Source of the DNA: Candidatus Doudnabacteria bacterium RIFCSPHIGHO2_01_FULL_46_14
GTDB taxonomy: Bacteria; Patescibacteriota; Doudnabacteria; UBA920; 2-01-FULL-46-14
Direction of reading: 5' to 3'
DNA: 64,000 nt
Assembly: GCA_001779925.1 (NCBI GenBank)
Contig: MFEK01000014.1
Coordinates: 152,168 to 216,167 of the forward strand
Shown here piece after piece: positions 1 through 62,932 of this stretch (position 1 is its first letter; every line of letters begins with the position of its first letter). The translations under genes were made by a program, and so were the position numbers. The notes below the pieces were generated by a model, which searched no databases, was not told the origin of the DNA, and worked only from the letters and a program-made list of their open reading frames with translations.

Positions 1-2777
1 CGAGTGTTTCGACCAAGCTCAACATAAAAAACGCCAAACGGCAGGTGCAAAGTTGGGGCGTAGGTTTTGATTGGTCGCGCGAGATAAATACCACTGATCC
101 GGAATATTACAAATGGACACAGTGGATTTTCCTGCAGTTCTACAAAGCGGGACTCGCGTACGAAGCCGCGGGGCTTATCAACTGGTGTCCGCAGGACAAA
201 ACAGGACTCGCGAACGAAGAGGTGATAGACGGCAAATGCGAACGTTGCGGAACAGTGGTTGAGAAAAAAGAACTGCGCCAATGGTATCTGAAAATCACAG
301 CGTACGCCGAAAAGCTTCTTGAGGGATTGAAAAATCTTCCCGAATGGCCGGATCAGGTCAAGCTCCAGCAGGAAAACTGGATCGGGAAAAGCGAGGGCGC
401 GGAAATTGATTTTCCATTATTTGTTATTCCGGCCGCCGAGCCGGAATCCAGTCCGCCTCAGGCGGATGGATCCCGAAGACCCAAGTCCGGGATGACAAAC
501 TTTTTAATTCTCCATGGGTACACGGGCTCGGCAGGCAGGAATTTTATACCCTGGCTGAAAACAGAGCTTGAAAAACAGGGTTATAAAGTGCAAACACCTG
601 AGCTGCCGAATTCTGATGACCCAAAAGAATCTGAGCAGGTTGATTATATTTTAAAAAAATGCAGCATTGATGAGAATACGATTATAGTTGGTCATAGCCT
701 TGGCTGTATAGTCGCCATGAAAGCCCTGCAAAAATACGGAAAATCCGTTAAGGGGTTAATATTGCTGGATGCGGCCGTAGATCCTGCGTTTTCTGGCGCT
801 ACGCCTCGACCGTTCCACAAGAATTTTTCCTGGAATTTCGACTACGAAAGGTTAAAAAAATACGCACCTGCGCGGACCATACTTTCAGATTTAAAAGAGG
901 GCGAGCCGCGGGTGGGATATCTGAAAACTTTATCAAAGAAACTGGATGCGCAATTGATAACTGGGCGATCAACGGAGAATCACTTCACAGCTGAGCGAGA
1001 ACCATTGGTGTTAGAAATTCTCACCCCTCCCTCAATCCCTCCCCATCAAGGGGAGGGAAGAGGGGAAGGGATAAAAATTTTTACCACCAGGGTTGATACT
1101 TTACCAGGTGCGACCTTTATTGTAATTGCCCCGGAGCACCCTCTTATACAGAATTTTGCCTCAAGGATTTCGAATTTCAGCGAGGTGAGTAAATATATCG
1201 AGGAGGCAAAAAAGAAAACTGATATTGTCCGCTCCGCCAGGGACAAAGAAAAAACCGGGGTGGAATTGAAAGGTGTTAAAGTGGTTAATCCGGTTAATGG
1301 TGAAAAATTGCCGATTTGGGTTGCGGACTATGCTTTGATGGATTTTGGCACAGGCGCGTTATTTGGCGATGCGCACGACGAACGCGATCAAGCATTCGCC
1401 AAGAAATATAAAATTCCTTTAAAAGTAACTCTGAAGCCTGCAAACGGACGCGATGATTCAAAAATTCGGAATTTAGAAGAAGTCTTTATCGATGATGGTG
1501 TTTTGTATAATTCCGGAGAGTTCGATGGTCTATCTTCTGAAGAGGCTCGAAAAGTAATAACTAAATGGTTGGTAGATAAAAAATCAGGACGAGCGACTGT
1601 TTCTTACAAACTCCGCGATTGGGTGTTTTCCAGGCAGAGATATTGGGGCGAGCCGATTCCTATCATTCACTGCCCTGCGTGCGGAATAGTACCAGTACCG
1701 GAAAAAGATTTGCCGGTTCGGCTTCCGAACGTGAAAAAATATGAACCAACCGGAACAGGGGAATCGCCGCTCGCCGCGATAGACAAATGGGTGAAAGTGA
1801 AATGTCCAAACTGCAAAGGCCCAGCCAAACGCGAAACCAATACCATGCCGCAGTGGGCCGGCAGCTCTTGGTATTATTTGCGATACACTGACCCGAAAAA
1901 CAAGAACGAATTGGCAGATGATGAATTGATGAAACATTGGCTGCCGGTTGATGTGTATTTTGGCGGCACGGAACATACGACGCTTCACCTTTTGTATTCG
2001 CGTTTTTGGAATTTGTTTTTGCATGATCAGGGAATCGTGCCGGTAAGCGAGCCGTATACAAAGCGCGTGCCGCACGGGATTATTCTCGCCGAAGACGGGG
2101 AGAAGATGAGCAAAAGCCGGGGCAATGTAGTGAACCCTGATGAAATTGTGAACATATACGGCGCAGACACTTTGCGGATGTATGAGCTATTTTTGGGACC
2201 GCATGGGCAGACTGTTAGTTGGCATAGTCGCGGGATAATCGGTGTAAGGAGATTTTTGGAGAAAGTTTGGCGTCTCGCAAGCATAAAAGAATCATCAACA
2301 TCGCGGATTCAGAGTGATAAATTAGAGAGCATTATTCACAAGACTATTAAAAAAGTTACCGACGATATCGAAAATTTTCGTTTTAACACTGCGGTATCCG
2401 CACTGATGATTTTGGCGAATGAAATGGAAGGAAAACAAGTAAGCAAAAATGACATAACAAGACTGTTGAAATTATTAGCTCCATTTGCCCCCCATATGGC
2501 CGAAGATCTGTGGCGCGAATTGGGAAACAAAGTTTCAATTCATCTCGCACAGTGGCCGGAACATGATCCTGCTTTAGCTAAAGATGAATTTGTAAATGTT
2601 GCAGTGCAGATCAATGGCCGGGTTCGGGATACAGTGCGGATTGCAGTCGCGGCCAGCGAAGCCGAAGCAAGAAATTTTGCAGAAGCAAGCTCCCAAGTTC
2701 AAAAGCATCTGGTCGGTAAGCAAGTTGGGAAATTTATTTATATTCCCGGAAAAATTATTAATTTCGTCGTGAAATAA
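1..2777 (+). CDS. leuS: Leucyl-tRNA synthetase, 5'-truncated by the window edge; carries an inserted alpha/beta-hydrolase domain before the CP1 editing domain
   Basis: The frame is open from nt 3, so the N-terminus lies upstream of the window. Class-I LeuRS motifs are present: GFDWSRE, WCPQD, the CP1 entry motif FTTRxDTL, a KMSKS-like MSKSRGN, and a conserved C-terminal region. An extra stretch of about 220 aa lies between EGAEIDF and IFTTR. Confidence 0.9.
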   Translation, partial: SVSTKLNIKNAKRQVQSWGVGFDWSREINTTDPEYYKWTQWIFLQFYKAGLAYEAAGLINWCPQDKTGLANEEVIDGKCERCGTVVEKKELRQWYLKITAYAEKLLEGLKNLPEWPDQVKLQQENWIGKSEGAEIDFPLFVIPAAEPESSPPQADGSRRPKSGMTNFLILHGYTGSAGRNFIPWLKTELEKQGYKVQTPELPNSDDPKESEQVDYILKKCSIDENTIIVGHSLGCIVAMKALQKYGKSVKGLILLDAAVDPAFSGATPRPFHKNFSWNFDYERLKKYAPARTILSDLKEGEPRVGYLKTLSKKLDAQLITGRSTENHFTAEREPLVLEILTPPSIPPHQGEGRGEGIKIFTTRVDTLPGATFIVIAPEHPLIQNFASRISNFSEVSKYIEEAKKKTDIVRSARDKEKTGVELKGVKVVNPVNGEKLPIWVADYALMDFGTGALFGDAHDERDQAFAKKYKIPLKVTLKPANGRDDSKIRNLEEVFIDDGVLYNSGEFDGLSSEEARKVITKWLVDKKSGRATVSYKLRDWVFSRQRYWGEPIPIIHCPACGIVPVPEKDLPVRLPNVKKYEPTGTGESPLAAIDKWVKVKCPNCKGPAKRETNTMPQWAGSSWYYLRYTDPKNKNELADDELMKHWLPVDVYFGGTEHTTLHLLYSRFWNLFLHDQGIVPVSEPYTKRVPHGIILAEDGEKMSKSRGNVVNPDEIVNIYGADTLRMYELFLGPHGQTVSWHSRGIIGVRRFLEKVWRLASIKESSTSRIQSDKLESIIHKTIKKVTDDIENFRFNTAVSALMILANEMEGKQVSKNDITRLLKLLAPFAPHMAEDLWRELGNKVSIHLAQWPEHDPALAKDEFVNVAVQINGRVRDTVRIAVAASEAEARNFAEASSQVQKHLVGKQVGKFIYIPGKIINFVVK

Positions 2778-5502: not shown

Positions 5503-6837
5503 ATGAAATATGAAGCACTAAAAAAAGAGGATCCGGAGATTTATGGTCTGATCCAAAAAGAAGCGAGGCGACAAAAAGAGGGTTTGGAAATGATTCCCTC
5601 GGAAAATTATGCTTCGTCCGCGGTTCTTGAAGCAATGGGTAGCATCCTCAACGTTAAATATGCTGAAGGCTATCCGGGAAAAAGATATTATGGAGGCAAC
5701 ATTTACATTGACGAGATTGAGAGGCTTTGCCAGAAGCGGGCACTCAAGGCGTTTGGGGCCGAAGGTTATCACGTCAATGTTCAGCCGCTTTCGGGAAGCC
5801 CGGCAAACCTGGCCGTGTATTTTGCGCTGCTCACACCCGGGGACACGATAATGTCACTCAAGCTCGATCACGGTGGACATCTCACGCATGGTTCCCCGAC
5901 GAATTTTTCCGGAAAAAATTATAACTTCGTCTTTTATCCTGTCGATCCGAAATTGGAAACACTTGATTATGACGTGATTGAAAAACTCGCGGCCGAACAC
6001 AAGCCGAAAATTATCCTTTCCGGTTATACGGCTTATCCGCGGAGCATCGATTTCGAGCGTATCGCAAAAATCGCCAAGCAAGTCGGAGCGATTTCTATGG
6101 CTGATATCTCACATATTTCGGGCCTGATCGTCGGCGGGGTTCATTCGTCACCGTTTCCATACACCGACGTGGTCATGACCACCACTCATAAAACTCTCCG
6201 TGGTCCGCGGGCGGCCATGCTTTTTTGCCGCGAGGAGTTCAAAGATCAGATCGATAAAGCCGTATTTCCCGGTATGCAGGGCGGTCCCCACGAGCATACG
6301 ATCGCCGGTATCGCTGTTGCTCTGCGCGAGGCGATGACAGATGGATTCAAAGAGTATGTGGCACAGATCTTGAAAAACGCTACAACCTTGGCCAAAAGTC
6401 TGCAGGGCCAGGGTTTGAAGCTTGTCACTGACGGGACTGATAATCATTTGATGTTGATCGACCTGCGGCCGTTTGCCGCAGGGAGTGGAATTTTCGTGGA
6501 AAAAGCTCTCGAAGAAGCGGAAATCAGCGTAAATAAAACCACAGTACCGAATGACCCGATGCCGCCGTACTATCCTTCCGGCATCAGATTAGGGCCGCCG
6601 GCTTTGACCAGCCGGGGTATGAAAGAGCAAGAAATGGAGCAAGCTGGTAAATTGATCGCGCGAATTGTCAAAGAGTTCGCAAAAATCAAATTGCCGGAAG
6701 AGAAAGAAAAACGCGCAGCATCCGTCAAAGAATTCTCAGCCAAGCTCGCGGATAACTCCTTGATTAAAGAGGTTAAATCACAAGTCATTGAACTTGCTAG
6801 TAAATTTCCCGTTCCGGGAATAGATTTACCCCATTAG
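5503..6837 (+). CDS. glyA: Serine hydroxymethyltransferase
   Basis: Full-length SHMT with the motifs SENY, YPGKRYYGG and the PLP-site HKTLRGPR. Confidence 0.95.
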   Translation: MKYEALKKEDPEIYGLIQKEARRQKEGLEMIPSENYASSAVLEAMGSILNVKYAEGYPGKRYYGGNIYIDEIERLCQKRALKAFGAEGYHVNVQPLSGSPANLAVYFALLTPGDTIMSLKLDHGGHLTHGSPTNFSGKNYNFVFYPVDPKLETLDYDVIEKLAAEHKPKIILSGYTAYPRSIDFERIAKIAKQVGAISMADISHISGLIVGGVHSSPFPYTDVVMTTTHKTLRGPRAAMLFCREEFKDQIDKAVFPGMQGGPHEHTIAGIAVALREAMTDGFKEYVAQILKNATTLAKSLQGQGLKLVTDGTDNHLMLIDLRPFAAGSGIFVEKALEEAEISVNKTTVPNDPMPPYYPSGIRLGPPALTSRGMKEQEMEQAGKLIARIVKEFAKIKLPEEKEKRAASVKEFSAKLADNSLIKEVKSQVIELASKFPVPGIDLPH

Positions 6838-6892
6838 ATAAGTTTGGAAAATGACCGATGATTCTACAAAATTAAAATATCTAACGGGGTAA

Positions 6893-7405
6893 ATGCGCAA
6901 TTTCGATCTTCAAGTTTTCGAGTATATTAATGGCCTTGCCCTGAAATATCCGCTCTGGGACAAGGTCGTCATTTACGCCAACGAGTATGGCCTTTATGTT
7001 TTCGCTGGGATTGTCGCGATACTGTTTTTCGTCAATCGCCGAGCTTTCTGGGGTGCTGCGATTTCCTCAATTCTTGCCCGCGGAATCATTACAGAGATCA
7101 TTCGCTATGCGTATAAACGGCCGAGGCCATTTGTCAACGATCAGTTGGAAAACGTCCGACAGCTTGTTGTAAAAAGTGTGATCAACGATTCATTTCCTTC
7201 GGGGCACGCCGCGTTCTATTTCGCAATTGCTTTCGCCGTGTATTTCCAGAACCGCAAGGCCGGTGCTGTTTTGATTATTCTGGCGGTGATTCTGGGAACG
7301 ACCCGAATCTACACGGGAATTCATTATCCATCAGATATTCTGGGGGGCGCTCTGATTGGTTTTGCTTCAGCGTGGGTTGCGGGTAAGCTGCTTTTTCGCC
7401 GGTAA
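6893..7405 (+). CDS. PAP2-family phosphatase, likely undecaprenyl/lipid-phosphate phosphatase
   Basis: PAP2 motifs KRPRPF, PSGH and SRxxxxxHxxxD are present in a membrane protein. Confidence 0.75.
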   Translation: MRNFDLQVFEYINGLALKYPLWDKVVIYANEYGLYVFAGIVAILFFVNRRAFWGAAISSILARGIITEIIRYAYKRPRPFVNDQLENVRQLVVKSVINDSFPSGHAAFYFAIAFAVYFQNRKAGAVLIILAVILGTTRIYTGIHYPSDILGGALIGFASAWVAGKLLFRR

Positions 7406-7451
7406 AAACTGTGCTAGTCTAAGAATAGACACGAGTAAAGAATCGCCAGAA

Positions 7452-7853
7452 ATGAAACAAAATCAACAATCCCTGCCAATTCTGTTTTTTGCTTGGTTTT
7501 TTGTTGCCCAGCCCGGTAAAATAATCGCCAGCGGTAAGAACACCATGCATTGGGTCTGGCAGTATTTTTCTATCGGCTTTTTACTGCCGCGGCTGTTTGC
7601 GTCCTGGCATCGGGATATTACCTCATACGGCCGCGGTTTTGATTTGAAGCGTTCCTTGCACGCGCTTGGCTGGAACATGATTTCCCGCGTAATCGGCGCG
7701 TTTCTGCGGGTGGTGTTTATCATTCTGGGATTGGCTTTTGAGCTTTGTGTTCTGATAGGAACAATTTTCGCGCTGGTCTTATGGTACTCTTTTCCTATTA
7801 TTGTCCTGTTTTTAGCCATTGGTAAAATCTCGCTCGAGATTCTTCAAACATGA
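7452..7853 (+). CDS. Hypothetical membrane protein
   Basis: An ORF with predicted TM segments; the start was chosen at the MKQNQQ Met. No recognisable family. Confidence 0.35.
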   Translation: MKQNQQSLPILFFAWFFVAQPGKIIASGKNTMHWVWQYFSIGFLLPRLFASWHRDITSYGRGFDLKRSLHALGWNMISRVIGAFLRVVFIILGLAFELCVLIGTIFALVLWYSFPIIVLFLAIGKISLEILQT

Positions 7854-7965
7854 CCACGTAATACATTTTGAGTTTACCAAGTAAGTATTAAAATATGTAT
7901 TTAAGTATAACTAATTCAGGATCAGCTTTTGTTCTCCGGCAGCAGTCGAAGATCTCCCAAGGCTG

Positions 7966-10425
7966 ATGTACGAGATGAATGATTATCTAAAACAATCCGG
8001 ATATCTTGGCGCGGCTCATTTGGAAAAAATATTTCCACGGCAGATCACTGCTGTCATGACAACCGTGTGCTTGGTAGCGGTTCTGGCTTGCGCTGTCATT
8101 GCGGTTATTTTGGGCAGCAAGTCTTTGTTCACAGTTGCGCTACTGCTGCTAGTTTTATTTTATTTTCTGGCAGCTTATTTCTTGTTTACAAATTTTTTGC
8201 AGGAAGATCGCAGTCTTAGCGCGAATGAAATCGCAGAGGCGCGTGCGGCAAAAAAGCTTGGCATGATTTTAAATTTCTCAGCTGTTCAGGTTTTGGAGAC
8301 AAGCGTGCAAGGGAATACTCTAAAGCTCTATGATTTTTTTAATCATACATTCAAGCTTCCGGAATTTGTCTGGATTTTACGCCGGCTGAACATTCTGCCT
8401 CAGGATTTTCAAAAAAGAGTTTTGATGAGCTGTGATACAAACTCAACCATGCTGATGACAGACGTGCTCGAAACTGCCTGGCAAATAGCCTTGTCGGCAA
8501 ACCATCTGAATATCAGCGAGTACGAGATTCTGGCCGCAGTTTACGAGCTTGATAAGAATTTTCAAAAAGTTCTTTTTAGTTTTGAGGCAGAACAGAAAGA
8601 TTTTTTCGAAGTGATATATTGGAGGCGCAGAAAAGACTTAGAGACGAAAATCAGGCGTCTCGATATCAAAGGCATTGGCAAAGATTGGTCAGGCGGATAT
8701 ACGGTTCAGCTCGACGAAACTGCGACAGATATAACAGCGGCTCTGGAAACCAGGCGCGTACCTTCGCATTTATACGGACAAAGCGCCAATCTTGAGCTTT
8801 TACAGCGAATGCTGGTGCGCGGAGCGGGATCCAGCAATGTCGTGCTGGTGGGACCGCCCGGCGTGGGTAAACATCATTTGATCGACGCTCTAGCGGAGCT
8901 CATCAATTCCGGGCAGACGTTCCCGTCCCTTCGTTATATGAGGCTGCTGCAAATCGATTCTTCCTCTCTTATTGCCGGCACGCTTTCGCCAAACCAGATT
9001 CTCTCTAAAATTGGAGCATTATTTATGGAAGCGTACGCCGCCGGAAACGTGATATTGGTGGTCAATGATATTGACGCGCTTCTTGATTCGGGACGGGACG
9101 CCGTGGGGCGCGTTAACGCCACGGAAGCGTTGCTGCGCTTTTTCCAGTCCAGCTTGCATATAATTGGTCTTACGACGCCTAGCGGATACCAAAATACAAT
9201 TGGTCGTAATCCCATGTTGCAAAAACTTATTGCCAAGCTGGAGCTTGATGAGCCGACGAACGCTGAGACCCTGATGATTTTGCAGGACCACGCGGTCCAA
9301 TTGGAAAGGGATTCAGGCTTATTTTTCACGCACCAGGCTTTGCAACAAATCGTGTTGCTTGCAGGCAAGCTGATCCAAAACCTGCCCAATCCGGAAAAGT
9401 CTCTTGAAGTGCTTTCCGAAACTGCGGTTTACGTTGCGGTTGATATTTCGTCACGGATCGTTTTGCCGGAGCATGTGCAGCATGTGGTTGCTGAGAAAAC
9501 CAAGGTTCCCGTGGAAAAAATTTCCATGGGAGAAAAAGATAAACTTCTAAACCTTGAGGAGATTTTGCATCGCAGGATAATTGGCCAGGATGAGGCTGTT
9601 AGGGAGCTCGCCGATTCTCTGCGGCGTGCACGGTCAGGCATTCGTTCCGAGAAAAAACCAATCGGTAGTTTTCTTTTCTTGGGGCCGACCGGCGTTGGCA
9701 AAACCGAAACTACTAAGGCGCTCGCGGAAACATATTTTGGCGACTATTCAAAGATCCTACGCTTTGATATGTCAGAATTTCAGGAAATTCATGCACTGAA
9801 CCGGCTCATTGGCGATGCTGATACCGGAACAGGCGGTCTGCTCACCGAGCAGGTCGTCGCAAATCCGTTTTCGTTGGTACTTCTTGATGAGCTGGAAAAA
9901 GCTCATCCCAAGATTCTCGATTTATTTTTGCAGGTTCTCGATGACGGCATCCTTACGGATTTTTTGGGCAGGAAAATCAGTTTTATTAACACCATGATAA
10001 TTGCGACCTCGAACGCCGGCTCGGAGATGATCCGCAATATAGTGAAAGAAGGGAACGACCCTCAGGCTTTCCGTGAACAGATTTTAGGCTCCTTGCAGAG
10101 CCAAAATATTTTCCGTCCGGAATTTCTAAATCGTTTTGACGGAGTGGTAATTTTCAAACCGCTCTCCCCGGAAGATCTCCTTCGTGTGGCTGGATTGCTT
10201 CTTGCCGAACTAAACAGCAGGCTGGCGGAAAAAGAGATTCAGGTCGAGATAACAGACGAGCTTTGTCAGACTGTAGTTTCCGGCGGTTATCAGCCCGAAT
10301 TTGGCGCGCGGCCCCTGCGGCGCTACATTCAGGAGCATTTGGAAAATTTTGTCGCCCGCGGCCTCATTGACGGCTCAATCAAAAAAGGCGATACGATAAG
10401 AATTGATCCGGGTCAATTGTCTTGA
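7966..10425 (+). CDS. Clp/Hsp100-family AAA+ ATPase (ClpB/ClpC-like) with an N-terminal transmembrane anchor and a degenerate first nucleotide-binding domain
   Basis: Two AAA modules are present. D2 is canonical: RIIGQDEAV, GPTGVGKTE, LLDELEKAH, a sensor region and ATSNAG. D1 has GPPGVGKH in place of GKT and VVNDID in place of the hhhhDE Walker-B motif. The first roughly 75 aa are hydrophobic (TM). There is no long M-domain coiled coil and no IGF loop. Confidence 0.8.
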   Translation: MYEMNDYLKQSGYLGAAHLEKIFPRQITAVMTTVCLVAVLACAVIAVILGSKSLFTVALLLLVLFYFLAAYFLFTNFLQEDRSLSANEIAEARAAKKLGMILNFSAVQVLETSVQGNTLKLYDFFNHTFKLPEFVWILRRLNILPQDFQKRVLMSCDTNSTMLMTDVLETAWQIALSANHLNISEYEILAAVYELDKNFQKVLFSFEAEQKDFFEVIYWRRRKDLETKIRRLDIKGIGKDWSGGYTVQLDETATDITAALETRRVPSHLYGQSANLELLQRMLVRGAGSSNVVLVGPPGVGKHHLIDALAELINSGQTFPSLRYMRLLQIDSSSLIAGTLSPNQILSKIGALFMEAYAAGNVILVVNDIDALLDSGRDAVGRVNATEALLRFFQSSLHIIGLTTPSGYQNTIGRNPMLQKLIAKLELDEPTNAETLMILQDHAVQLERDSGLFFTHQALQQIVLLAGKLIQNLPNPEKSLEVLSETAVYVAVDISSRIVLPEHVQHVVAEKTKVPVEKISMGEKDKLLNLEEILHRRIIGQDEAVRELADSLRRARSGIRSEKKPIGSFLFLGPTGVGKTETTKALAETYFGDYSKILRFDMSEFQEIHALNRLIGDADTGTGGLLTEQVVANPFSLVLLDELEKAHPKILDLFLQVLDDGILTDFLGRKISFINTMIIATSNAGSEMIRNIVKEGNDPQAFREQILGSLQSQNIFRPEFLNRFDGVVIFKPLSPEDLLRVAGLLLAELNSRLAEKEIQVEITDELCQTVVSGGYQPEFGARPLRRYIQEHLENFVARGLIDGSIKKGDTIRIDPGQLS

Positions 10426-22938: not shown

Positions 22939-22960
22939 AATACCCCGTTAAACGGGGTAT
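22939..22960 (-). terminator. Terminator hairpin after rpmB
   Basis: ATACCCCG-TTAA-ACGGGGTAT, a perfect 8-bp stem flanked by A and T tracts. Confidence 0.5.
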
Positions 22961-56453: not shown

Positions 56454-57668
56454 ATGACAGATAAAAAAATGGAAACACAAACACCAATTCAAACACAAAA
56501 CCCTGTGATCATAACCCCACCTCCTCCTGAGGTTCCTCTACTTTCCAAGGAGGGGCCTAGTGAGGTAAAACCGCATCACCACATCACCTCCTGGGTGGCT
56601 TTGGTGATCATTGCTACAATCGCAGCTACGACTGGTTATCTGCTCTGGGCCAAATCTCAGGAAGCCTGGCCGTTTGATTTTGACGGGCCGTGGAGTGAGG
56701 TCAAGAGAATAGGTTCTCAAAGTGAAACTGCAGGGTGGAACATATGCAAGAATGAGGCTTACGGTTTTGAGGTAAAATATCCTCCGAATTGGAAAGTATG
56801 GAGAGTTGGCGCTCCTGAAGCAAGCGTAAGCTCGTGCGAAGTTGGCTTGCGAACTGCAGGATTTTCGCCTAATCTCCTTGAATTGTCTCTTGAAACGATA
56901 CAACAAATTAATGTTGACGTTGATAGCGAGACGGTAAAAACAATCGAAGATTATAGAGCCAAGCACCCCGAGTTTTTCTATTTTAACGAGATAACTCGAG
57001 AGTCCACTATTGATGGACAGAAGCTGTACTGGTTTGGAGAGAGACTAGCGATTACTTTTTACGATGGCAAGATGTTCAGATTTAGTATGATTCAAAACAT
57101 TGACGAGTCAACCCTCAATCTTTTTTTCTCTACTTTTAAATTTATTAAACAGACCCCGAAGGTGAATGCTTCGAATTGGAATGAGTACTACTATGAAGAT
57201 CAGTTTGAGATACGGTACCCTACAGATTTTCGTTTTATTGATGCCGATGATTCAGGTACTTATCATAATAATTTTTTTCCAAATGACGGCATTGTCATGG
57301 GAACAATTTTGTTTCCCGATCAAAAAGGAACAAATCTTTCCAGCGCTTCAATCAGCATGGCCCGCTATGATGGGTATTTGACCGCAGAAGATTGTAAACT
57401 GTATCGCAACGTCGACAAAATTTCAAAAATGACAGAAACAGAAACTGTTGAATATGAGTTTTATAAGGCAACGATAACTGGTGCAGCAGCTGGTACAAAA
57501 GTTACCCAGTATATTTATCGGCTTTACAATAGCAATTGTTTTGAAATTTCCTTGGATATACGCGTAGGCAACATTGCAAATTATGAGACGGGAACAGTTA
57601 ATGAAGTTGATGAAGACACAATCCTGGATCAATTTAAATCTATATTATCAACCGTTGGAATAATATGA
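56454..57668 (+). CDS. Hypothetical membrane-anchored protein, AT-rich
   Basis: N-terminal TM helix; no recognised domain; noticeably lower GC than its neighbours. Confidence 0.5.
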   Translation: MTDKKMETQTPIQTQNPVIITPPPPEVPLLSKEGPSEVKPHHHITSWVALVIIATIAATTGYLLWAKSQEAWPFDFDGPWSEVKRIGSQSETAGWNICKNEAYGFEVKYPPNWKVWRVGAPEASVSSCEVGLRTAGFSPNLLELSLETIQQINVDVDSETVKTIEDYRAKHPEFFYFNEITRESTIDGQKLYWFGERLAITFYDGKMFRFSMIQNIDESTLNLFFSTFKFIKQTPKVNASNWNEYYYEDQFEIRYPTDFRFIDADDSGTYHNNFFPNDGIVMGTILFPDQKGTNLSSASISMARYDGYLTAEDCKLYRNVDKISKMTETETVEYEFYKATITGAAAGTKVTQYIYRLYNSNCFEISLDIRVGNIANYETGTVNEVDEDTILDQFKSILSTVGII

Positions 57669-58534
57669 TCGGCGAAGACATACACGAAAAGAAAATAAAA
57701 AAGCTTGAAAAGATCGCGAACCAGATTCGCGAGGATATTATTGTCGCGCTTCTGAATGCCAAATCTGGTCATTCTGCGGGACCTTTGGGTATGGCTGATG
57801 TTTTTACCGCGTTATATTTTCACGTTTTAAATATCCGTCCCAAACAGCCGAAATGGGAGGATCGCGACCGGCTAACGCTATCGTGCGGGCACATTAACCC
57901 TGTGCTGTACGCTGCTTTGGCCAATGCAGGATATTTTTCGCGTGATGAGTTCCGGAAAACACTTCGCCGGTTTGGTACGCGCCTTCACGGGCACCCGCAT
58001 AACCTTGTGACTCCTGGCGTGGAAAATTCTTCTGGCCCTTTGGGACAGGGGCTGTCGCAGGCGATTGGTATGGCACTTGCTGCCAAAATGGACGGCAAGA
58101 AGCGCCAGATTTACTGCATCATGTCTGATGGGGAACAGCAGGAAGGGCAGATCTGGGAAGCTGTGATGTTTGCCGGCAAAAACCGCCTGGACAACCTCAC
58201 CGCGATTATGGATCGCAATAGCATTCAGATCGATGGCTTTACTGAGGATGTTATGCCGCTCGAGCCTCTGCGTGCCAAATACGAAGCCTTCAACTGGCAT
58301 GTCATTGAAATTGATGGCAATAACATTCGTCAGGTGGTGGAAGCTTGTAACCAGGCTTATGGTATTTACGAGCGTCCGGTTTTGATTATCGCTCACACAG
58401 TACCGGGCAAGGGCGTGGATTTTATGGAGCAGGATTATAAATGGCATGGAAATCCGCCGAATAAAGATCAGGCTGGCGAGGCGCTAAAACAACTGCGCAC
58501 TTTGGGCGGAAAAATTAAATCCGAGCACGAATAA
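57665..58534 (+). CDS. Transketolase, N-terminal subunit (split tkt)
   Basis: TPP-binding motifs GHSAGPLGMAD, DGEQQEG and NLTAIMDRN. Confidence 0.9.
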   Translation: MIGEDIHEKKIKKLEKIANQIREDIIVALLNAKSGHSAGPLGMADVFTALYFHVLNIRPKQPKWEDRDRLTLSCGHINPVLYAALANAGYFSRDEFRKTLRRFGTRLHGHPHNLVTPGVENSSGPLGQGLSQAIGMALAAKMDGKKRQIYCIMSDGEQQEGQIWEAVMFAGKNRLDNLTAIMDRNSIQIDGFTEDVMPLEPLRAKYEAFNWHVIEIDGNNIRQVVEACNQAYGIYERPVLIIAHTVPGKGVDFMEQDYKWHGNPPNKDQAGEALKQLRTLGGKIKSEHE

Positions 58535-60274
58535 ATGACTGTATTAGTTTTATTTTTGGTAATTTTTTGTTTGATGTGGATCGCGCGGCTTAGCGGCCGG
58601 TTAAGCGATTTGGAAAAGGAAAGGTCTCCCGCGCAGACAAAACAAGGAGCATCCGCGTCTATAGCACCTTCTATCCCACAGGCGCCGGTCACGCAGCCGA
58701 TGTCTAAGCAGGAAGCCGCTGCTCCAAAGCCGCAAACAGAAAAGCGTGCGGAGGAGGAGATTGCCACCAATTGGCTGACAAGGATCGGGGTAGTGGCCTT
58801 GCTCTTTGGCGTGGGCTTTTTTTTGAAATACGCGATTGACCAAGGCTGGATCAATGAGCTTATGCGCGTCATGATTGGTGTTTCAGTAGGTGTGCTCCTC
58901 ATCATCCTCGGCGAGATATGGAAATCAAAATATCGAGATTACGCGCTCAGCCTTTCCGGCGGCGGAATTGGCATTTTATATTTCAGCGTTACCGCGGCTT
59001 ACCAGTTTTACGGGCTTGTTTCACATGGCGCAGCTTTCGGGCTTGCGATTCTGATCACCCTGGTGGCTGCGTTTTTAGCGTATCGTTATCAGAGCCTGCC
59101 GCTCGCCCTTCTTTCTACTATTGGCAGCTACGCCTCGCCGCTCTTGCTTTATTCTGGCAGAGACCAGCAGATCCAACTTTTTTTTTACATGACGATTCTC
59201 AATATGGGAATACTTACTGTTCTGGTAAAAAAATACTGGTTCGAGCTTTTGTACGTGGCGTTTATCGGCACGGGTTTGAATTTTTTGGTTTGGGTTTTGA
59301 GATTTTCCAATTCCGATAACACCCTGGAAAGCGTAGTATTTTTGCTAACCACTCTCGCCCTATTCTGGGTGATCACTATGCTTCTCCTGCGGCTCCATGA
59401 AACCGAACAACCCCTGCAAAAAAGTGCGGACGACAAGCAGGGTATGTTTATGGTGTTGAGCGCGATTTATTTTGTGATTGCTGTGTTTACCCTGCTTTAT
59501 GGCAATTTCCATCATCGCCTAGCTCTTGTTTCTTTTTTGGAAGCCGCAGTAGCGCTCGTTACCTATCTTTTTGCAGCTAGACAAAACTGGCCTGTGACGC
59601 GTTATACCGCGGCCTTTAGTGCATTTGTGTTGTTCGTAATGTTTAATTTTTGGCAGTTTGACGGAGCAGGAACAGATGTTTCAATTTTCGTATTGGCAAT
59701 AGCAGGAATCTTTGCCGGGGCTTTTCTCGGCAAACCAGAGCTGCGCGTGGCAGGCGTATCAACGCTCTTTTTCGGCATGATCAAGACTTTTGCCAATTCA
59801 TACGAAATGCAATCGTATACCTTTCTTTTAAATGAAAAGTTTTCGCTTTCTGCCTTATATATTGTTGGCGGTTGGATTGTTTCCCGATTCTGGAACCGGG
59901 ATGGTCAAAAAATCAAAGCAATTTCGGCTTTGGCTTTATGGTTTGCAGTAACCTGGGAAATCGTGGCGTATTTCCAGCAATTCCCTGGTTCAGGTAATAG
60001 TTTAAACCTGTCTATCAGTATATGGTGGATTACCTACGCGGTTGTTGTATTGATATATGGGGTGATGATGCGCGACGCGTTTTTCCGCAAACTTGCAATA
60101 ATCTTATTCGGGCTGAGTATAGTGAAAGTTTTTGTTTATGATGTGCAAAGTCTTGACACGGGATACCGCATCGTTTCATTTATAACGCTCGGTGTGATTT
60201 TATTGTCCGTATCATTTGCCTATCACAAAAATAAAGAAAAAATCACGTTTTTTTTGGAAGGTAAAAGCAAATGA
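58535..60274 (+). CDS. Large polytopic membrane protein (DUF2339-like)
   Basis: At least 12 TM helices and an N-terminal Pro/Ala/Gln-rich region; the start directly abuts the tktN stop. Confidence 0.6.
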   Translation: MTVLVLFLVIFCLMWIARLSGRLSDLEKERSPAQTKQGASASIAPSIPQAPVTQPMSKQEAAAPKPQTEKRAEEEIATNWLTRIGVVALLFGVGFFLKYAIDQGWINELMRVMIGVSVGVLLIILGEIWKSKYRDYALSLSGGGIGILYFSVTAAYQFYGLVSHGAAFGLAILITLVAAFLAYRYQSLPLALLSTIGSYASPLLLYSGRDQQIQLFFYMTILNMGILTVLVKKYWFELLYVAFIGTGLNFLVWVLRFSNSDNTLESVVFLLTTLALFWVITMLLLRLHETEQPLQKSADDKQGMFMVLSAIYFVIAVFTLLYGNFHHRLALVSFLEAAVALVTYLFAARQNWPVTRYTAAFSAFVLFVMFNFWQFDGAGTDVSIFVLAIAGIFAGAFLGKPELRVAGVSTLFFGMIKTFANSYEMQSYTFLLNEKFSLSALYIVGGWIVSRFWNRDGQKIKAISALALWFAVTWEIVAYFQQFPGSGNSLNLSISIWWITYAVVVLIYGVMMRDAFFRKLAIILFGLSIVKVFVYDVQSLDTGYRIVSFITLGVILLSVSFAYHKNKEKITFFLEGKSK

Positions 60275-60576
60275 GCAGCCACGGCCCGAGCTGGTACAAA
60301 GTTTTTGCTACCGGCCTCGCGATTACCTATCTGTTTTTTCTCATCATGGTTTCGCAGTGCACATTTTCTCTTTCCGATCCAATCTCGCTTTTCAACACAT
60401 TTCTCTGTGTGCTGTACGTCGGATTTTCCTTGCTTTGTTTGATTATGGGGCTGGCAGTATCATTGGTCGGCTTTGAACATGCAAAAAAACAGGGAAAAAA
60501 CCGGGGTTTTTATCTGATGTTGATGGTTTATTTAATCGCAGGTTTGTTTGCCATCATTTTTTATCGCTTCCTATGA
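60271..60576 (+). CDS. Small membrane protein
   Basis: Three TM helices; overlapping start and stop (ATGA) with its neighbours. Confidence 0.45.
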   Translation: MSSHGPSWYKVFATGLAITYLFFLIMVSQCTFSLSDPISLFNTFLCVLYVGFSLLCLIMGLAVSLVGFEHAKKQGKNRGFYLMLMVYLIAGLFAIIFYRFL

Positions 60577-60818
60577 GTATTCAGATAACGCAAAATGACA
60601 AAAAGGTCATCAGCGCTGCCCTGCTTGCTGTGGTTTTACTCGTCGGACTATTCTATGCGGAACGCGCAAGGAAAGAGCAGTCAAAGAGCGTTAAAAATGA
60701 TATGATATGCATACAGGTCGTCACGAAGGCCCGCAATCCCAAAACTGGAGAGATTCGAGAATTTTCCACTCCGTGTGATGTGCCTGTCGGCTGGATTAAA
60801 TCGGGTATTAATAATTAA
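60573..60818 (+). CDS. Small membrane-anchored protein
   Basis: One TM helix; overlapping start. Confidence 0.45.
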   Translation: MSIQITQNDKKVISAALLAVVLLVGLFYAERARKEQSKSVKNDMICIQVVTKARNPKTGEIREFSTPCDVPVGWIKSGINN

Positions 60819-60832
60819 TTGACAATTAACCC

Positions 60833-60905
60833 CGTTAGAAATCTAAGCAAGATCTTTAGCGGCATCTCACGTTTTTAGGACCTCTAGCCACAGAGATTTC
60901 TAACG
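60833..60905. promoter_or_regulatory. 12-bp inverted repeat whose 3' arm overlaps the RBS of the next gene
   Basis: Arms CGTTAGAAATCT (60833-60844) and AGATTTCTAACG (60894-60905). Confidence 0.5.
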
Positions 60906-60907
60906 AG

Positions 60908-61096
60908 GTGAATCAAAATAAAATGAAAGCAATGAAAAAAAATCTATCGCCGGAATTCTGGGTTACGACCATTGTTCTTGCTGCGTTTATGGCCGGATTT
61001 GTGGTCTGGACAAAGACCGCCGCGTTAGCAAGCGATGATTTTGGCAGCTTTACTTATCATAAAAAACTGCTCCCCAAAAAAGCCAGCAGAAGATAA
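60908..61096 (+). CDS. Small membrane protein
   Basis: One TM helix; GAGGTG RBS. Confidence 0.4.
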   Translation: MNQNKMKAMKKNLSPEFWVTTIVLAAFMAGFVVWTKTAALASDDFGSFTYHKKLLPKKASRR

Positions 61097-62083
61097 ATGC
61101 TTAGCGCAAAGGCAAAACTTTCAAAAAAAATTTTTCACGGCGGCATTGATATGTTGCCGACCCGAGATGGGTATGGCCTCGGCTTGGTTTGGCTTGGGGA
61201 AAACAACCCGAACGTTGTTGTATTGACTGGGGATTTGTCAGAGTCAACAAGGTCCAGCTGGTTCGCGGAAAAATTTCCAAAACGGTTTATCGAGGTTGGC
61301 GTGGCCGAGCAGAATATGATGGGCATTGCCGCGGGTCTAGCGCTATCAGGGAAGATTCCGTTTGTCTCCTCTTATGCGACGTTTAACCCTGGCCGCAATT
61401 GGGATCAGTTGCGAGTCTCGGTTTGTTACAGCGGAGCAAACGTAAAAATCGCAGGAGCGCATGCCGGTATTTCAGTGGGTCCGGACGGCGCGACTCACCA
61501 GGCTTTGGAGGATATTGCGATTACGCGCGTCCTGCCCGATCTGGTGGTAATCGTTCCCTGTGACAAAATAGAAGCGCAGAAAGCCACGATTGCTATGGCG
61601 GTAGAGATAAAAGGACCCGCATACATTCGTTTTGGCCGGGAAAAGAGTCCGGTTTTTACCACAGAAGATACGCCTTTTAAAATCGGCCGGGCAGAGGTTT
61701 TTCGGGAGGGAGATGATGTTGCCATCATTGGCAGTGGGATGCTAGTTTATAACGCGCTCCAGGCAGCTGAGGAGTTACATAAAGAAGGGATTAGCTGTCA
61801 GGTAGTCAACAACCATACTATCAAGCCGATTGACCGAAAAACCATTGCTGCGGCAGCTAGGAAATGCGGCGCAGTGGTGACAGTCGAGGAACATCAGATA
61901 AACGGGGGAGCCGGGAGCGCAGTCATCGAGGTTCTCGCTGAGGAATATCCTGTCCCAGTGGAGCGGGTAGGCATGCCTGACAGTTTTGGGCAGTCAGGCC
62001 AGCCGGCGGAGCTCATTGAACATTATGGCATGGGCAAGAGTGCTATAATCAAAGCAGTGAAGAAAGTGTTAAAGAGAAAATAA
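61097..62083 (+). CDS. Transketolase, C-terminal subunit (split tkt)
   Basis: Pyrimidine-binding/C-terminal domain motifs GADGATHQ and MPDSFGQSG; the internal ATG at 61151 is an alternative start. Confidence 0.9.
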   Translation: MLSAKAKLSKKIFHGGIDMLPTRDGYGLGLVWLGENNPNVVVLTGDLSESTRSSWFAEKFPKRFIEVGVAEQNMMGIAAGLALSGKIPFVSSYATFNPGRNWDQLRVSVCYSGANVKIAGAHAGISVGPDGATHQALEDIAITRVLPDLVVIVPCDKIEAQKATIAMAVEIKGPAYIRFGREKSPVFTTEDTPFKIGRAEVFREGDDVAIIGSGMLVYNALQAAEELHKEGISCQVVNNHTIKPIDRKTIAAAARKCGAVVTVEEHQINGGAGSAVIEVLAEEYPVPVERVGMPDSFGQSGQPAELIEHYGMGKSAIIKAVKKVLKRK

Positions 62084-62191: not shown

Positions 62192-62932
62192 ATGGAACCG
62201 CCAAAAGTCGGAGAGCTTTTCAAACAAGCCTGGGAAATATTCAAACAAAAAATAAAACCTTTGGTGCTTATTCAACTACCTTCCTTTGTGGTCGGCACTT
62301 TATTCGGCGGGTTTATTGGTTTCGCAGGGTTTGTTGACGTTAATGGTAGATTTGTGATGCCAGCGGTCTGGGACGAGAAAACAATCGCAATCGCGTCGAT
62401 TGGGGGCGTGTTGGCGATCGCTACCTTGGTAGTATCGATCTGGACGCAGATGGCCACAATGGTAGCGATAAAAGATTTAGATACTGTATTGAGTTTTAGA
62501 GAAGCCTACAAACAGAGCTCCGGTCTGATCTTATCGTCTCTTGTAATCTCAATACTAACCGGACTGGCTTTAATGGGAGGGTTTATTCTTTTGGTGATAC
62601 CGGGGATTATTTTCCTAGTGTGGTTTTCTTTTGGAAATTACGTTCTGGTCAACGAAGGCAAAAAAGGCAGCGAGGCTTTACAAGCGAGCAAGGAATACGT
62701 GAAAGGTAATTTTTGGGCAGTACTGGGCAGGTACATTGTGCTCATTTTGGTGGCAATCGTTGTTTTTGCGGTCCCTTCAGGGATTTTGAGCATGACCGGT
62801 TTAAAAATCCTCGAGGATGTCTACACGACAGTTGCGTCCCTGTTTTTTTCACCGCTCGCTGTAATATATACTTTTCTGATGTATCGAAGCTTGCGTGATA
62901 TGAAATTAACCCCAACTCTACACAGTGTCTAA
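62192..62932 (+). CDS. Hypothetical multi-TM membrane protein
   Basis: Five or six TM helices; no recognised family. Confidence 0.5.
   Translation: MEPPKVGELFKQAWEIFKQKIKPLVLIQLPSFVVGTLFGGFIGFAGFVDVNGRFVMPAVWDEKTIAIASIGGVLAIATLVVSIWTQMATMVAIKDLDTVLSFREAYKQSSGLILSSLVISILTGLALMGGFILLVIPGIIFLVWFSFGNYVLVNEGKKGSEALQASKEYVKGNFWAVLGRYIVLILVAIVVFAVPSGILSMTGLKILEDVYTTVASLFFSPLAVIYTFLMYRSLRDMKLTPTLHSV

Follow-up and report, generated by a model that had tools for sequence, protein, structure and literature searches.

Arc3A (PA5114) of Pseudomonas aeruginosa stops the build-up of lysophospholipids after phospholipase attack (Ting et al. 2022, PMC8926400), a function that was confirmed in PMC12663445. 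Homologues from other species complement P. aeruginosa, and the partner protein Arc3B is reported only from Gram-negative phyla (PMC8926400). Arc3A homologues are defined in that work by a match to Pfam family PF10101 above the gathering threshold. Here a member of this family (DUF2339) is described from inside the split transketolase operon of a bacterium of the Patescibacteria (CPR), a group whose lysolipids and dependence on lipids are treated in PMC7242380.

A split transketolase has the ThDP-binding domain (PF00456) in one subunit and the pyrimidine-binding and C-terminal domains (PF02779 and PF02780) in the other. A literature search on split transketolase in CPR bacteria found nothing relevant. 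A control set was used to determine the spacing of the two genes, tktN and tktC. It consisted of 80 metagenome loci that contain a TktN homologue, and in 68 of them tktC is downstream. In 66 of these 68 loci tktC lies within about 200 nt of tktN. Thus the subunit genes are usually neighbours, as a preliminary description of this DNA had it, and the clade described below departs from this layout.

Results

The transketolase genes and the genes between them

The window, i.e., the whole 64,000-nt stretch of DNA that was analysed, carries a co-directional array, htrA-ruvX-galT-tpiA-rpiB-rpe-tktN|tktC-pfkB-gap-pgk-pgm. The genes given here and the hairpin described below are all on the forward strand. 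tktN (57665..58534) encodes the 289-aa N-terminal, ThDP-binding subunit (PF00456, E 9e-57), and tktC (61097..62083) the 328-aa subunit with the pyrimidine-binding and C-terminal domains (Transket_pyr, PF02779, E 1e-38; Transketolase_C, PF02780, E 8e-36). NCBIfam transketolase models span positions 12-281 and 316-625 of 627. The split point and the domain content are those of the canonical split transketolase operon, and rpe lies upstream and pfkB downstream, as in the sister lineage L088. However, the two halves are separated by 2562 nt in the window, and by 0.3-3.6 kb with one to four membrane-protein genes between them across its clade.

The first gene between the halves (58535..60274) encodes a 579-aa polytopic membrane protein of the DUF2339/Arc3A family. 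It is followed by s101 (60271..60576; 101 aa), s81 (60573..60818; 81 aa, an N-terminal TM anchor and a two-cysteine module, CIQVVTKARNPKTGEIREFSTPCDVPVGW) and s62 (60908/60923..61096), a putative ORF of 54-62 aa. Hydropathy gives three, one and one TM segments for s101, s81 and s62, which agrees with the three small membrane proteins seen earlier, s62 being only a putative gene. The coordinates of the six ORFs are exactly those of the preliminary description, and the junctions read from the sequence are also as it gave them: the tktN stop abuts the DUF2339 start (TAA|ATG), and ATGA overlaps follow at DUF2339/s101 and s101/s81. The s62 stop likewise abuts the tktC ATG as TAA|ATG. The tktC start at 61097 is backed by the N-terminal peptide MxxxKAKLSKKxF, conserved in L166 and L176; the tktC called in L001-L003, at 310 aa, probably falls short.

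Contigs of five separate assemblies or sequencing runs share the arrangement, which therefore is not an assembly artefact. Three contigs span the whole tkt block, with 1, 1 and 6 differences from the window in 4.4 kb, and a fourth, which begins at DUF2339, has 1 difference. The clustering of tpiA, rpiB and rpe with tkt that had been pointed out before was confirmed by Pfam search and contig comparison.

Two other junctions of the array are also occupied in the window. Between rpe and tktN is a gene (56454..57668) for a 404-aa protein with one N-terminal TM helix and no Pfam family. It overlaps tktN by ATGA and is missing from most relatives. L173 and L176 have other junction genes with domains weakly similar to this protein. 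Between tktC and pfkB is another junction-resident membrane gene (62192..62932), common to the window and L172, which encodes a 246-aa 5-TM protein with weak UPF0259/YciC similarity below the cutoff.

The Arc3A-family protein

The 579-aa protein, described earlier as DUF2339-like, matches PF10101 with E 8.8e-71 and 240 bits, compared to a gathering cutoff of 33.6, and is thus an Arc3A homologue by the published definition. The PF10101 domain is present in all 111 DUF2339 homologues found. A TM helix at the N-terminus of the protein is followed by a disordered linker (residues 30-68) and then by about 18 packed helices. Its AF2 model (pLDDT 79.7) has 20 helical elements over 579 aa, and the hydropathy profile has at least 14 peaks. 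As in Arc3A, the TM helices are unusually many and there is no recognisable catalytic motif. Comparison of the model with PDB structures returned only designed helical-repeat proteins and solenoids, with no natural solved relative and no natural enzyme or transporter fold.

There are differences from Arc3A, however. The Pseudomonas protein has 35 predicted TM segments, compared to about 19 helices here. The gene of the window has no aas neighbour and no Gac/Rsm control, and it lies within a sugar-metabolism operon, where the two halves of a split enzyme flank it. No match to Arc3B (PF13163) was found among the neighbouring ORFs, which is expected because Arc3B is reported in Gram-negative phyla only (PMC8926400). 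Pseudomonas Arc3A is stress-induced, whereas the gene order here makes DUF2339 appear to be expressed constitutively along with core carbon metabolism. No split tkt lies next to DUF2339 in about 70 other loci, which are from Chloroflexota, Bacteroidota and other CPR bacteria; one 46%-identical DUF2339 follows a Memo-family gene and not tktN.

Conservation of the occupied junction

The preliminary description had proposed that tktN/tktC synteny be checked in relatives, and the same arrangement was found in other lineages. DUF2339 follows tktN in 16 lineages, and tktC is downstream in all 15 whose contig reaches far enough. Besides the window, tktN-DUF2339-tktC, with or without a further gene before tktC, is found in L006-L013, L016, L166 and L168-L171; in L086 the contig ends after DUF2339 and before tktC. 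The whole sugar-metabolism array is syntenic across the tktN-DUF2339-tktC loci. Identity among the 16 lineages is 28-65% for DUF2339 and 61-95% for Tkt (28-56% and 64-83% across 11 of these loci), and the DUF2339 and Tkt identities are correlated (Mantel r 0.49, p 0.01). TktN is 61-95% identical to that of relatives, and a dN/dS of about 0.02 for tktN, relative to L166, indicates purifying selection.

At least one membrane-protein gene is present in the tktN-tktC junction of all 19 measurable loci of clades W and D, where the spacer is at least 306 nt. Sister lineages L087-L089 keep tktN and tktC adjacent, and the membrane genes are therefore an insertion relative to the usual layout. Clade W has a bootstrap of 199/200 in an NJ tree of TktN+TktC. 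The W+D group has a weak bootstrap of 30/200 in this type of tree, which is compatible with one gain and later losses or with several gains. The DUF2339 carriers are monophyletic in only 34% of replicates of the first tree, and a single origin of DUF2339 at the tkt junction is weakly indicated.

The idea that the four genes form one membrane complex does not hold, as they are of three ages: DUF2339 is found in 16 lineages, s101 in six, and s81, the hairpin and s62 in one species. All three small genes are missing from 13 DUF2339-only loci, which eliminates one conserved complex.

Elsewhere in the array, relatives have genes in the junction spacers only sporadically: pilin-like genes, 23S-IVP genes, or unrelated genes that belong to no Pfam family. 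These scattered fillers, together with an s81-like gene after rpiB in L177, fit a "landing pad" of a general kind, as opposed to a partnership specific to tkt. Genes for 23S rRNA-IVP/four-helix-bundle proteins occupy the same kind of CPR junctions; a copy in L090 is exactly between tktN and tktC, and by resemblance, remnants are probably present between tktN and DUF2339 in L006 and L007. However, these proteins are soluble and unrelated to those of the window block, and none is in the junction of the window. In L171 DUF2339 and tktC have a gene on the minus strand between them, and co-transcription of the two tkt halves is thus dispensable.

Signs of mobility were looked for at the block. There is no transposase or integrase by Pfam search, no terminal or direct repeat at the block ends, and no tRNA nearby. 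There is also no sharp composition break; GC is somewhat lower at 59750-61000. Thus the locus does not have the makeup of a mobile element or genomic island, and the same site is filled in relatives.

s101, a new family of 3-TM proteins

s101 is the founding member of a new small membrane-protein family, which has 17 cluster representatives among 1.84 billion. In the family alignment C30, C46 and G67 are invariant, and E69, inside a G-x-E-H-A-K/R motif, is nearly so. The AF2 model is a three-helix bundle with a pLDDT of 92. The protein diverges fast, being only 40% identical where TktN is 86% identical; a dN/dS of about 0.07 relative to L166 indicates purifying selection. In all six lineages with readable context s101 is located between tktN and tktC. 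Two of these, the window and L166, also have DUF2339, and four (L172, L173/L174, L175 and L176) do not. A profile HMM of s101 found no match across about 80 other DUF2339 loci.

Several assignments of s101 were rejected. It is not a remnant or duplicated piece of DUF2339 (hhalign probability 0.6%). Its last two helices weakly match the YiaA/YiaB two-helix domain (PF05360, E 0.0011), but the 19.6 bits are below the gathering cutoff of 26.6, only three of the 17 family members match at E ≤ 0.05, and a third helix and two invariant cysteines set s101 apart; membership in YiaAB is not supported. SemiSWEETs, which are of about 100 aa with three TM helices, resemble s101 in size and topology, and the sugar-metabolism surroundings would also suit. 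However, there is no MtN3/PQ-loop Pfam match and no SemiSWEET among the Foldseek results against the PDB, where the s101 model has no significant match (best E 0.75).

The species-specific segment and its hairpin

A segment of about 0.5 kb with s81, the hairpin and s62 (60577..61096, unstranded) was delimited by pairwise DNA alignment with L166 and is found in the species of the window only. At this place L166, the closest relative, has a 35-nt spacer between s101 and tktC, and s81 is not present. No direct repeats flank the segment, either by repeat search or in the alignment. Homologue searches with s81 gave almost no matches. The s81 module does recur in P0113, in L177 the gene that follows rpiB, and in a protein of 252 aa that L176 encodes between s101 and tktC. 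s62 is an orphan ORF: a search of 5.8 billion protein clusters matched only s62 itself. Where it starts is uncertain, with GTG 60908, ATG 60923 and ATG 60932 as candidates, and it is called by some gene callers and omitted by others.

The s81-s62 spacer has a long imperfect hairpin (60825..60913), detected by inverted-repeat search and RNA folding. The arms, 60825-60844 and 60894-60913, are 90% complementary, and the RNA fold has -28 kcal/mol (z = -4.0), with none of 200 shuffles folding as well. The 3′ arm contains GAGGTG (60905-60910), a Shine-Dalgarno-like motif before s62; an inverted repeat that overlaps the ribosome-binding site of the last small gene, as had been reported, is thus present. 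There is no Rfam match at E ≤ 1 and no close second copy of the element within the window, and it was rejected as a known RNA family, repeated element or MITE. It has no U-tract and is absent from the scored terminator-like sites. The 25-nt 5′ portion, comprising the 5′ arm and the start of the loop, has no match in viral contigs, and the hairpin is confined to one species. Motifs of 11 nt related to the hairpin arms are at 6824-6894 and 22943-22959.

Discussion

The locus is probably a variant gene order of the split-transketolase operon that is old and inherited and is present in one clade of Patescibacteria (CPR); envelope genes would ride there in a housekeeping operon. The split of tkt would have created an extra intergenic junction within a long co-directional housekeeping array, and this junction would then have been colonised by envelope genes. 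The Arc3A-family DUF2339 would be one long-term resident, and the ~100-aa 3-TM s101 family, in the subclade of the window, a second. Other small membrane-anchored genes would have been gained and lost, here s81, the hairpin and the doubtful s62 as one 0.5-kb segment.

It is also possible, but unlikely, that the split transketolase has s101 and/or DUF2339 as dedicated partners in the membrane, which would tether it, help in its assembly or belong to a membrane-associated pentose-phosphate metabolon; selection would then act on where their genes lie between tktN and tktC. The occurrence of a membrane gene in 19 of 19 W+D loci, in an array whose other junctions are filled sporadically, and of s101 in six of six lineages only at this junction could mean that the genes are truly tied to transketolase and were not just passively inherited. 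The gene junctions are also tight and of the coupling type. In addition, the positively charged, conserved G-x-E-H-A-K/R-K loop of s101 could by the positive-inside rule face the cytoplasm, within reach of a soluble partner. However, the occupant varies by subclade (DUF2339 only, s101 only, or both) and the families of the two occupants are not related to each other. Elsewhere, most DUF2339 genes are not near a split tkt, and the one after the Memo-family gene has that gene in place of tktN. Sister lineages with 60-68% identical Tkt work without the insert, the C-terminus of TktN (…SEHE) is the same with or without it, and the L171 junction has the opposite-strand gene. It is quite improbable that assembly of the enzyme takes place at the membrane of these ultra-small cells, or that the enzyme is tethered there, with s101 and possibly the Arc3A-like protein as dedicated partners.

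Exchange of cassettes among related CPR bacteria, with the conserved tktN and tktC as homology arms for recombination that swaps the cargo, would yield a patchy DUF2339/s101 pattern and many unrelated extras. Junction content is indeed highly variable, and clade W is patchy: DUF2339 is in the window, L166 and L086, and not in L172, L173, L175 and L176. The L086 DUF2339 is a long form with its best scores against clade-D proteins (L169, L010), and is about 35% identical to that of the window, though TktN is 87% identical. However, all DUF2339 pairs are about 30-45% identical, such that a closest relative is not resolved by these scores, and the positive correlation between DUF2339 and Tkt identities is as under vertical descent. 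s101 also diverges fast, and rapid vertical evolution with losses explains the same data. Cassette exchange is thus an unlikely account.

A recent entry into the tkt operon of a 2.6-kb block that was mobile or acquired horizontally is highly improbable: the adjacent layout is the normal one, the s81-hairpin-s62 indel is truly recent and species-specific, and GC is somewhat lowered, but DUF2339 and s101 are kept at the same site across deep divergence, the synteny in 16 lineages and the lack of transposase, integrase, end repeats and a nearby tRNA rule it out for these two genes, and the hairpin element has neither a close copy in the window nor, for its 5′ portion, a match in viral contigs. 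The insertion proposed in the preliminary description thus stands relative to the adjacent layout, but for DUF2339 and s101, as judged from sequence comparison, it is ancient and conserved and not recent, and it has no marks of mobility. That description had also named what would count against its reading, and this largely applies: relatives have the same arrangement, and the family of the main inserted gene has a published function (PMC8926400, PMC12663445).

In the inherited gene-order variant that is preferred here, the abutting stops and starts and the overlaps of 4 nt suggest translational coupling of the membrane genes on one transcript with tktN and tktC. Such coupling would tie their expression, constitutively, to core sugar metabolism. 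DUF2339 may have a role like that of Arc3A: as an inner-membrane protein dense in helices, it would limit the accumulation of lysophospholipids or the damage they do. Pfam membership makes this role plausible in CPR bacteria, as does the biology of cells that are unable to make lipids and whose membranes are lysolipid-rich. s101 and s81 would be independent small envelope proteins, and a catalytic role of the membrane genes in the pentose-phosphate pathway would not be expected. As for the hairpin, its most likely role is to mask the ribosome-binding site of s62, or else to stabilise the mRNA or serve in its processing at the edge of the most recent addition.

The locus illustrates how a gene split can produce a junction that later gathers cargo. 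It is of use in the annotation of CPR genomes, in which s62 and the start of tktC are treated differently by different gene callers. If the link between the membrane genes and tkt is only positional, the arrangement is an evolutionary curiosity of moderate interest; if a membrane-tethered transketolase were true, a CPR clade would have a membrane-associated pentose-phosphate module all its own. s101 is a new, confidently modelled family whose sole known address is inside a split enzyme gene, and it is a candidate for a protein-enzyme partnership. The Arc3A/DUF2339 family gains a second and very different genomic setting, in lipid-auxotrophic CPR bacteria and beside core carbon metabolism, and its apparent constitutive co-expression hints that DUF2339 may have a housekeeping role in lysolipid-rich membranes.

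Structure of the tkt gene block

The two subunit genes of a split transketolase (Tkt), tktN (57665-58534; Pfam Transketolase_N) and tktC (61097-62083; Transket_pyr and Transketolase_C), are separated by a DUF2339 gene of 579 aa (58535-60274; Pfam E 9e-71) and three small open reading frames, all on the forward strand. These are s101 (101 aa, 60271-60576), s81 (81 aa, 60573-60818) and s62 (62 aa, 60908-61096), with three, one and one transmembrane (TM) segments by hydropathy, respectively; s62 is doubtful as a gene. The preliminary description of this block was correct: its coordinates match the ORF map exactly, and both the DUF2339-like protein and the membrane character of the small ORFs were found as it had them. 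The start of DUF2339 abuts the tktN stop (TAA then ATG, read also at s62/tktC) and ATGA overlaps follow at DUF2339/s101 and s101/s81, as it had stated; another ATGA overlap joins an upstream 404-aa gene to tktN.

The same arrangement is present on contigs of five separate assemblies or sequencing runs, and the three that carry the whole tkt block show 1, 1 and 6 differences from the window over 4.4 kb. Thus the block is not a chimera. In one assembly (L003 2771-3640, window 58324-58344), five substitutions in 21 nt of tktN create a stop codon; this is probably an error of assembly or sequencing at that spot rather than a pseudogene. In three assemblies (L001-L003) TktC is called with 310 aa, starting at a later ATG (61151 instead of 61097), and s62 is left out; the other two have a 328-aa TktC and a 54-aa s62. 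Alignment supports the 328-aa form, as first described, since the N-terminal peptide from ATG 61097 is conserved in the related loci L166 and L176.

Conservation and phylogeny

Metagenome contigs were scanned with a TktN alignment and the best 80 loci (47-87% identity) were kept as a control set. tktC lies downstream of tktN in 68, and within about 200 nt in 66 of the 68; the two halves are thus normally adjacent, as had been assumed, and their separation is unusual. In the two exceptions the gap contains rpe (L106 5118-5765, an unrelated lineage from a metagenome) or, in L090, a 23S-rRNA-IVP four-helix-bundle gene. A further locus of the best 80, L086, has DUF2339 after tktN. In L093, a rare case, a 298-aa opposite-strand gene (1129-2025, minus strand) follows a tktN that shares 56% identity with that of the window, tktC is absent within 2 kb, and the halves are wholly unlinked.

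Scanning genomes with a DUF2339 alignment and then running tblastn yielded nine species-level MAGs (L006-L013 and L016) named Candidatus Saccharibacteria or Doudnabacteria, i.e., CPR/Patescibacteria. All nine have the order htrA-ruvX-galT-tpiA-rpiB-rpe-tktN-DUF2339-tktC, and pfkB is next in 7/9, which are all those whose sequence extends so far. Context look-ups added L166 and L168, L169, L170 and L171, so that the synteny check proposed for relatives finds the tktN-DUF2339 order in 16 lineages, window and L086 counted. Identities among 11 of the 16 loci are 64-83% for Tkt and 28-56% for DUF2339, which makes the insertion ancient and the DUF2339 protein fast-evolving. None of about 70 other DUF2339 loci (Chloroflexota, Bacteroidota, other CPR) adjoins split tkt. 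In L167 (4065-5909), a DUF2339 gene with 46% identity to that of the window lies after a Memo-family gene and one of 1049 aa, not after tktN; a short inverted duplicate of it at the contig end is probably an assembly artefact.

In a neighbor-joining tree of TktN+TktC (200 bootstrap replicates), the window forms a clade (W) with L166, L086, L172, L173, L175 and L176, supported by 199/200. The best tree joins clade W to 13 DUF2339-only loci (group D), with support of 30/200 for the join, and places L090 and the adjacent-gene lineages L087-L089 outside W+D. The simplest history would be a single DUF2339 gain, with a gain of s101 and several losses of DUF2339 in clade W.

A new small membrane protein family

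An unexpected result is that s101 belongs to a previously undescribed family. When all 1.84 billion representatives were scanned with HMMER, 17 proteins emerged, mostly of about 100-116 aa, in which alignment shows C30, C46 and G67 invariant and a conserved G-x-E-H-A-K/R motif. Every member with readable context sits between tktN and tktC, either after DUF2339 (window, L166) or without any DUF2339 (L172, L173/L174, L175, L176). L166 is the closest relative (TktN 95%, DUF2339 65%, s101 70% identity), and a dN/dS of about 0.07 against it, with dS saturated, indicates purifying selection on s101. The model is a confident three-helix bundle (pLDDT 92) with no relative found among solved structures. 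The structure search showed no similarity to SemiSWEET, s101 is not homologous to DUF2339, and a YiaAB match was weak and below cutoff.

None of the three small ORFs occurs in the 13 DUF2339-only loci. In L166, tktC begins 35 nt after s101 and the s81-hairpin-s62 segment (approximately 60577-61096) is missing from the alignment, so this segment is an indel specific to the window's species. Thus the small genes do not share a single history. s81 consists of a TM anchor and a two-cysteine module that recurs in protein P0113, encoded after rpiB, and in a 252-aa L176 protein between s101 and tktC. A homologue search with s62 found none at all.

Hairpin between s81 and s62

The inverted repeat noted at the ribosome-binding site of the last small gene was recovered by repeat search and RNA folding, with arms at 60825-60844 and 60894-60913 (forward strand); the 3′ arm includes the GAGGTG motif preceding s62. 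The energy of its RNA fold is -28 kcal/mol (z = -4.0). It is confined to one species and has no Rfam match, no U-tract and no close second copy within the 64-kb window. Its stem motif ACCCCGTT/AACGGGGT is common to hairpins at 6824-6894 and 22943-22959, and the window holds 6 copies of the 11-nt arm motif, where 1.06 would be expected. The hairpin at 6824-6894 (-19.7 kcal/mol, z -2.95) runs up to the start codon of a gene for a 170-aa membrane protein, possibly PAP2-like, by motif alone; that at 22943-22959 is tight and terminator-like. The most likely role of the s81-s62 hairpin would be to mask the s62 ribosome-binding site, or to stabilise or process the mRNA at the border of the newest insertion.

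Membrane genes at the tkt junction

Other junctions of the array are sporadically occupied in relatives, by 23S-IVP genes, pilin-like genes or unrelated genes that match no Pfam family. The window itself has a 404-aa protein with one TM anchor (56454-57668, forward) between rpe and tktN, with no Pfam or NCBIfam family, and a 246-aa 5-TM protein (62192-62932, forward) between tktC and pfkB, which has weak UPF0259/YciC similarity below cutoff and is common to L172 at 43% identity. The 404-aa protein has weakly similar segments in two L173 genes (27-31% over about 60-110 residues) and, by eye alone, shares a YxVxYPxxW motif with the C-terminal part of an L176 junction protein. IVP/bAvd-like four-helix-bundle genes are at array junctions in L090 (8893-9255, exactly between tktN and tktC) and L170 (1846-2232), and short ORFs in L006 (9589-9762) and L007 (9647-9950) look in sequence like remnants of such genes. 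In L171 a minus-strand 385-aa gene without a Pfam family (7204-8361) lies between DUF2339 and tktC; tktC there must have its own promoter, and the halves need not be co-transcribed.

The filled junctions, the window's 404-aa and 5-TM genes and the L171 gene favour a positional explanation, a “landing pad”, which we regard as probable, though by no means certain: envelope genes would ride on a housekeeping polycistron, to which the tkt split would merely add one more permissive junction. Opposed to a purely passive role is the retention of a membrane gene in the tkt junction at 19/19 measurable W+D loci, and s101 is known from no other location. The same two observations speak for a real partnership of these proteins with Tkt, but the unrelated occupants of other junctions and the dispensable co-transcription in L171 speak against it, and it is unlikely. 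Cassette exchange, in which the conserved halves of tkt would serve as homology arms, is quite improbable, and DUF2339 may have been gained repeatedly instead of once; the long-form DUF2339 of L086, which shares about 35% identity with each of the other copies, suits either, but the correlation of DUF2339 and Tkt identities (Mantel r 0.49, p 0.01) fits vertical descent.

A member of the Arc3A family in a transketolase operon

The DUF2339 family is the Arc3A family, of which the 579-aa protein is a new member. Its AF2 model (pLDDT 79.7) shows an N-terminal helix and a disordered linker, followed by about 19 helices in an array. P. aeruginosa relies chiefly on Arc3A for defence against the phospholipase toxin Tle3; the protein prevents LPE/MLCL accumulation and can be replaced by homologues of other species (PMC8926400); its role against lipase effectors was confirmed independently (PMC12663445). 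CPR bacteria are without lipid synthesis and appear lysolipid-rich (PMC7242380), which makes it attractive to suppose that the DUF2339 protein may act as a lysolipid buffer. The tktN-membrane genes-tktC feature is genuine, conserved and non-mobile, and adds a new variant to the known split-transketolase operons. It holds this new Arc3A family member and, with s101, a small membrane protein family that had not been described before.
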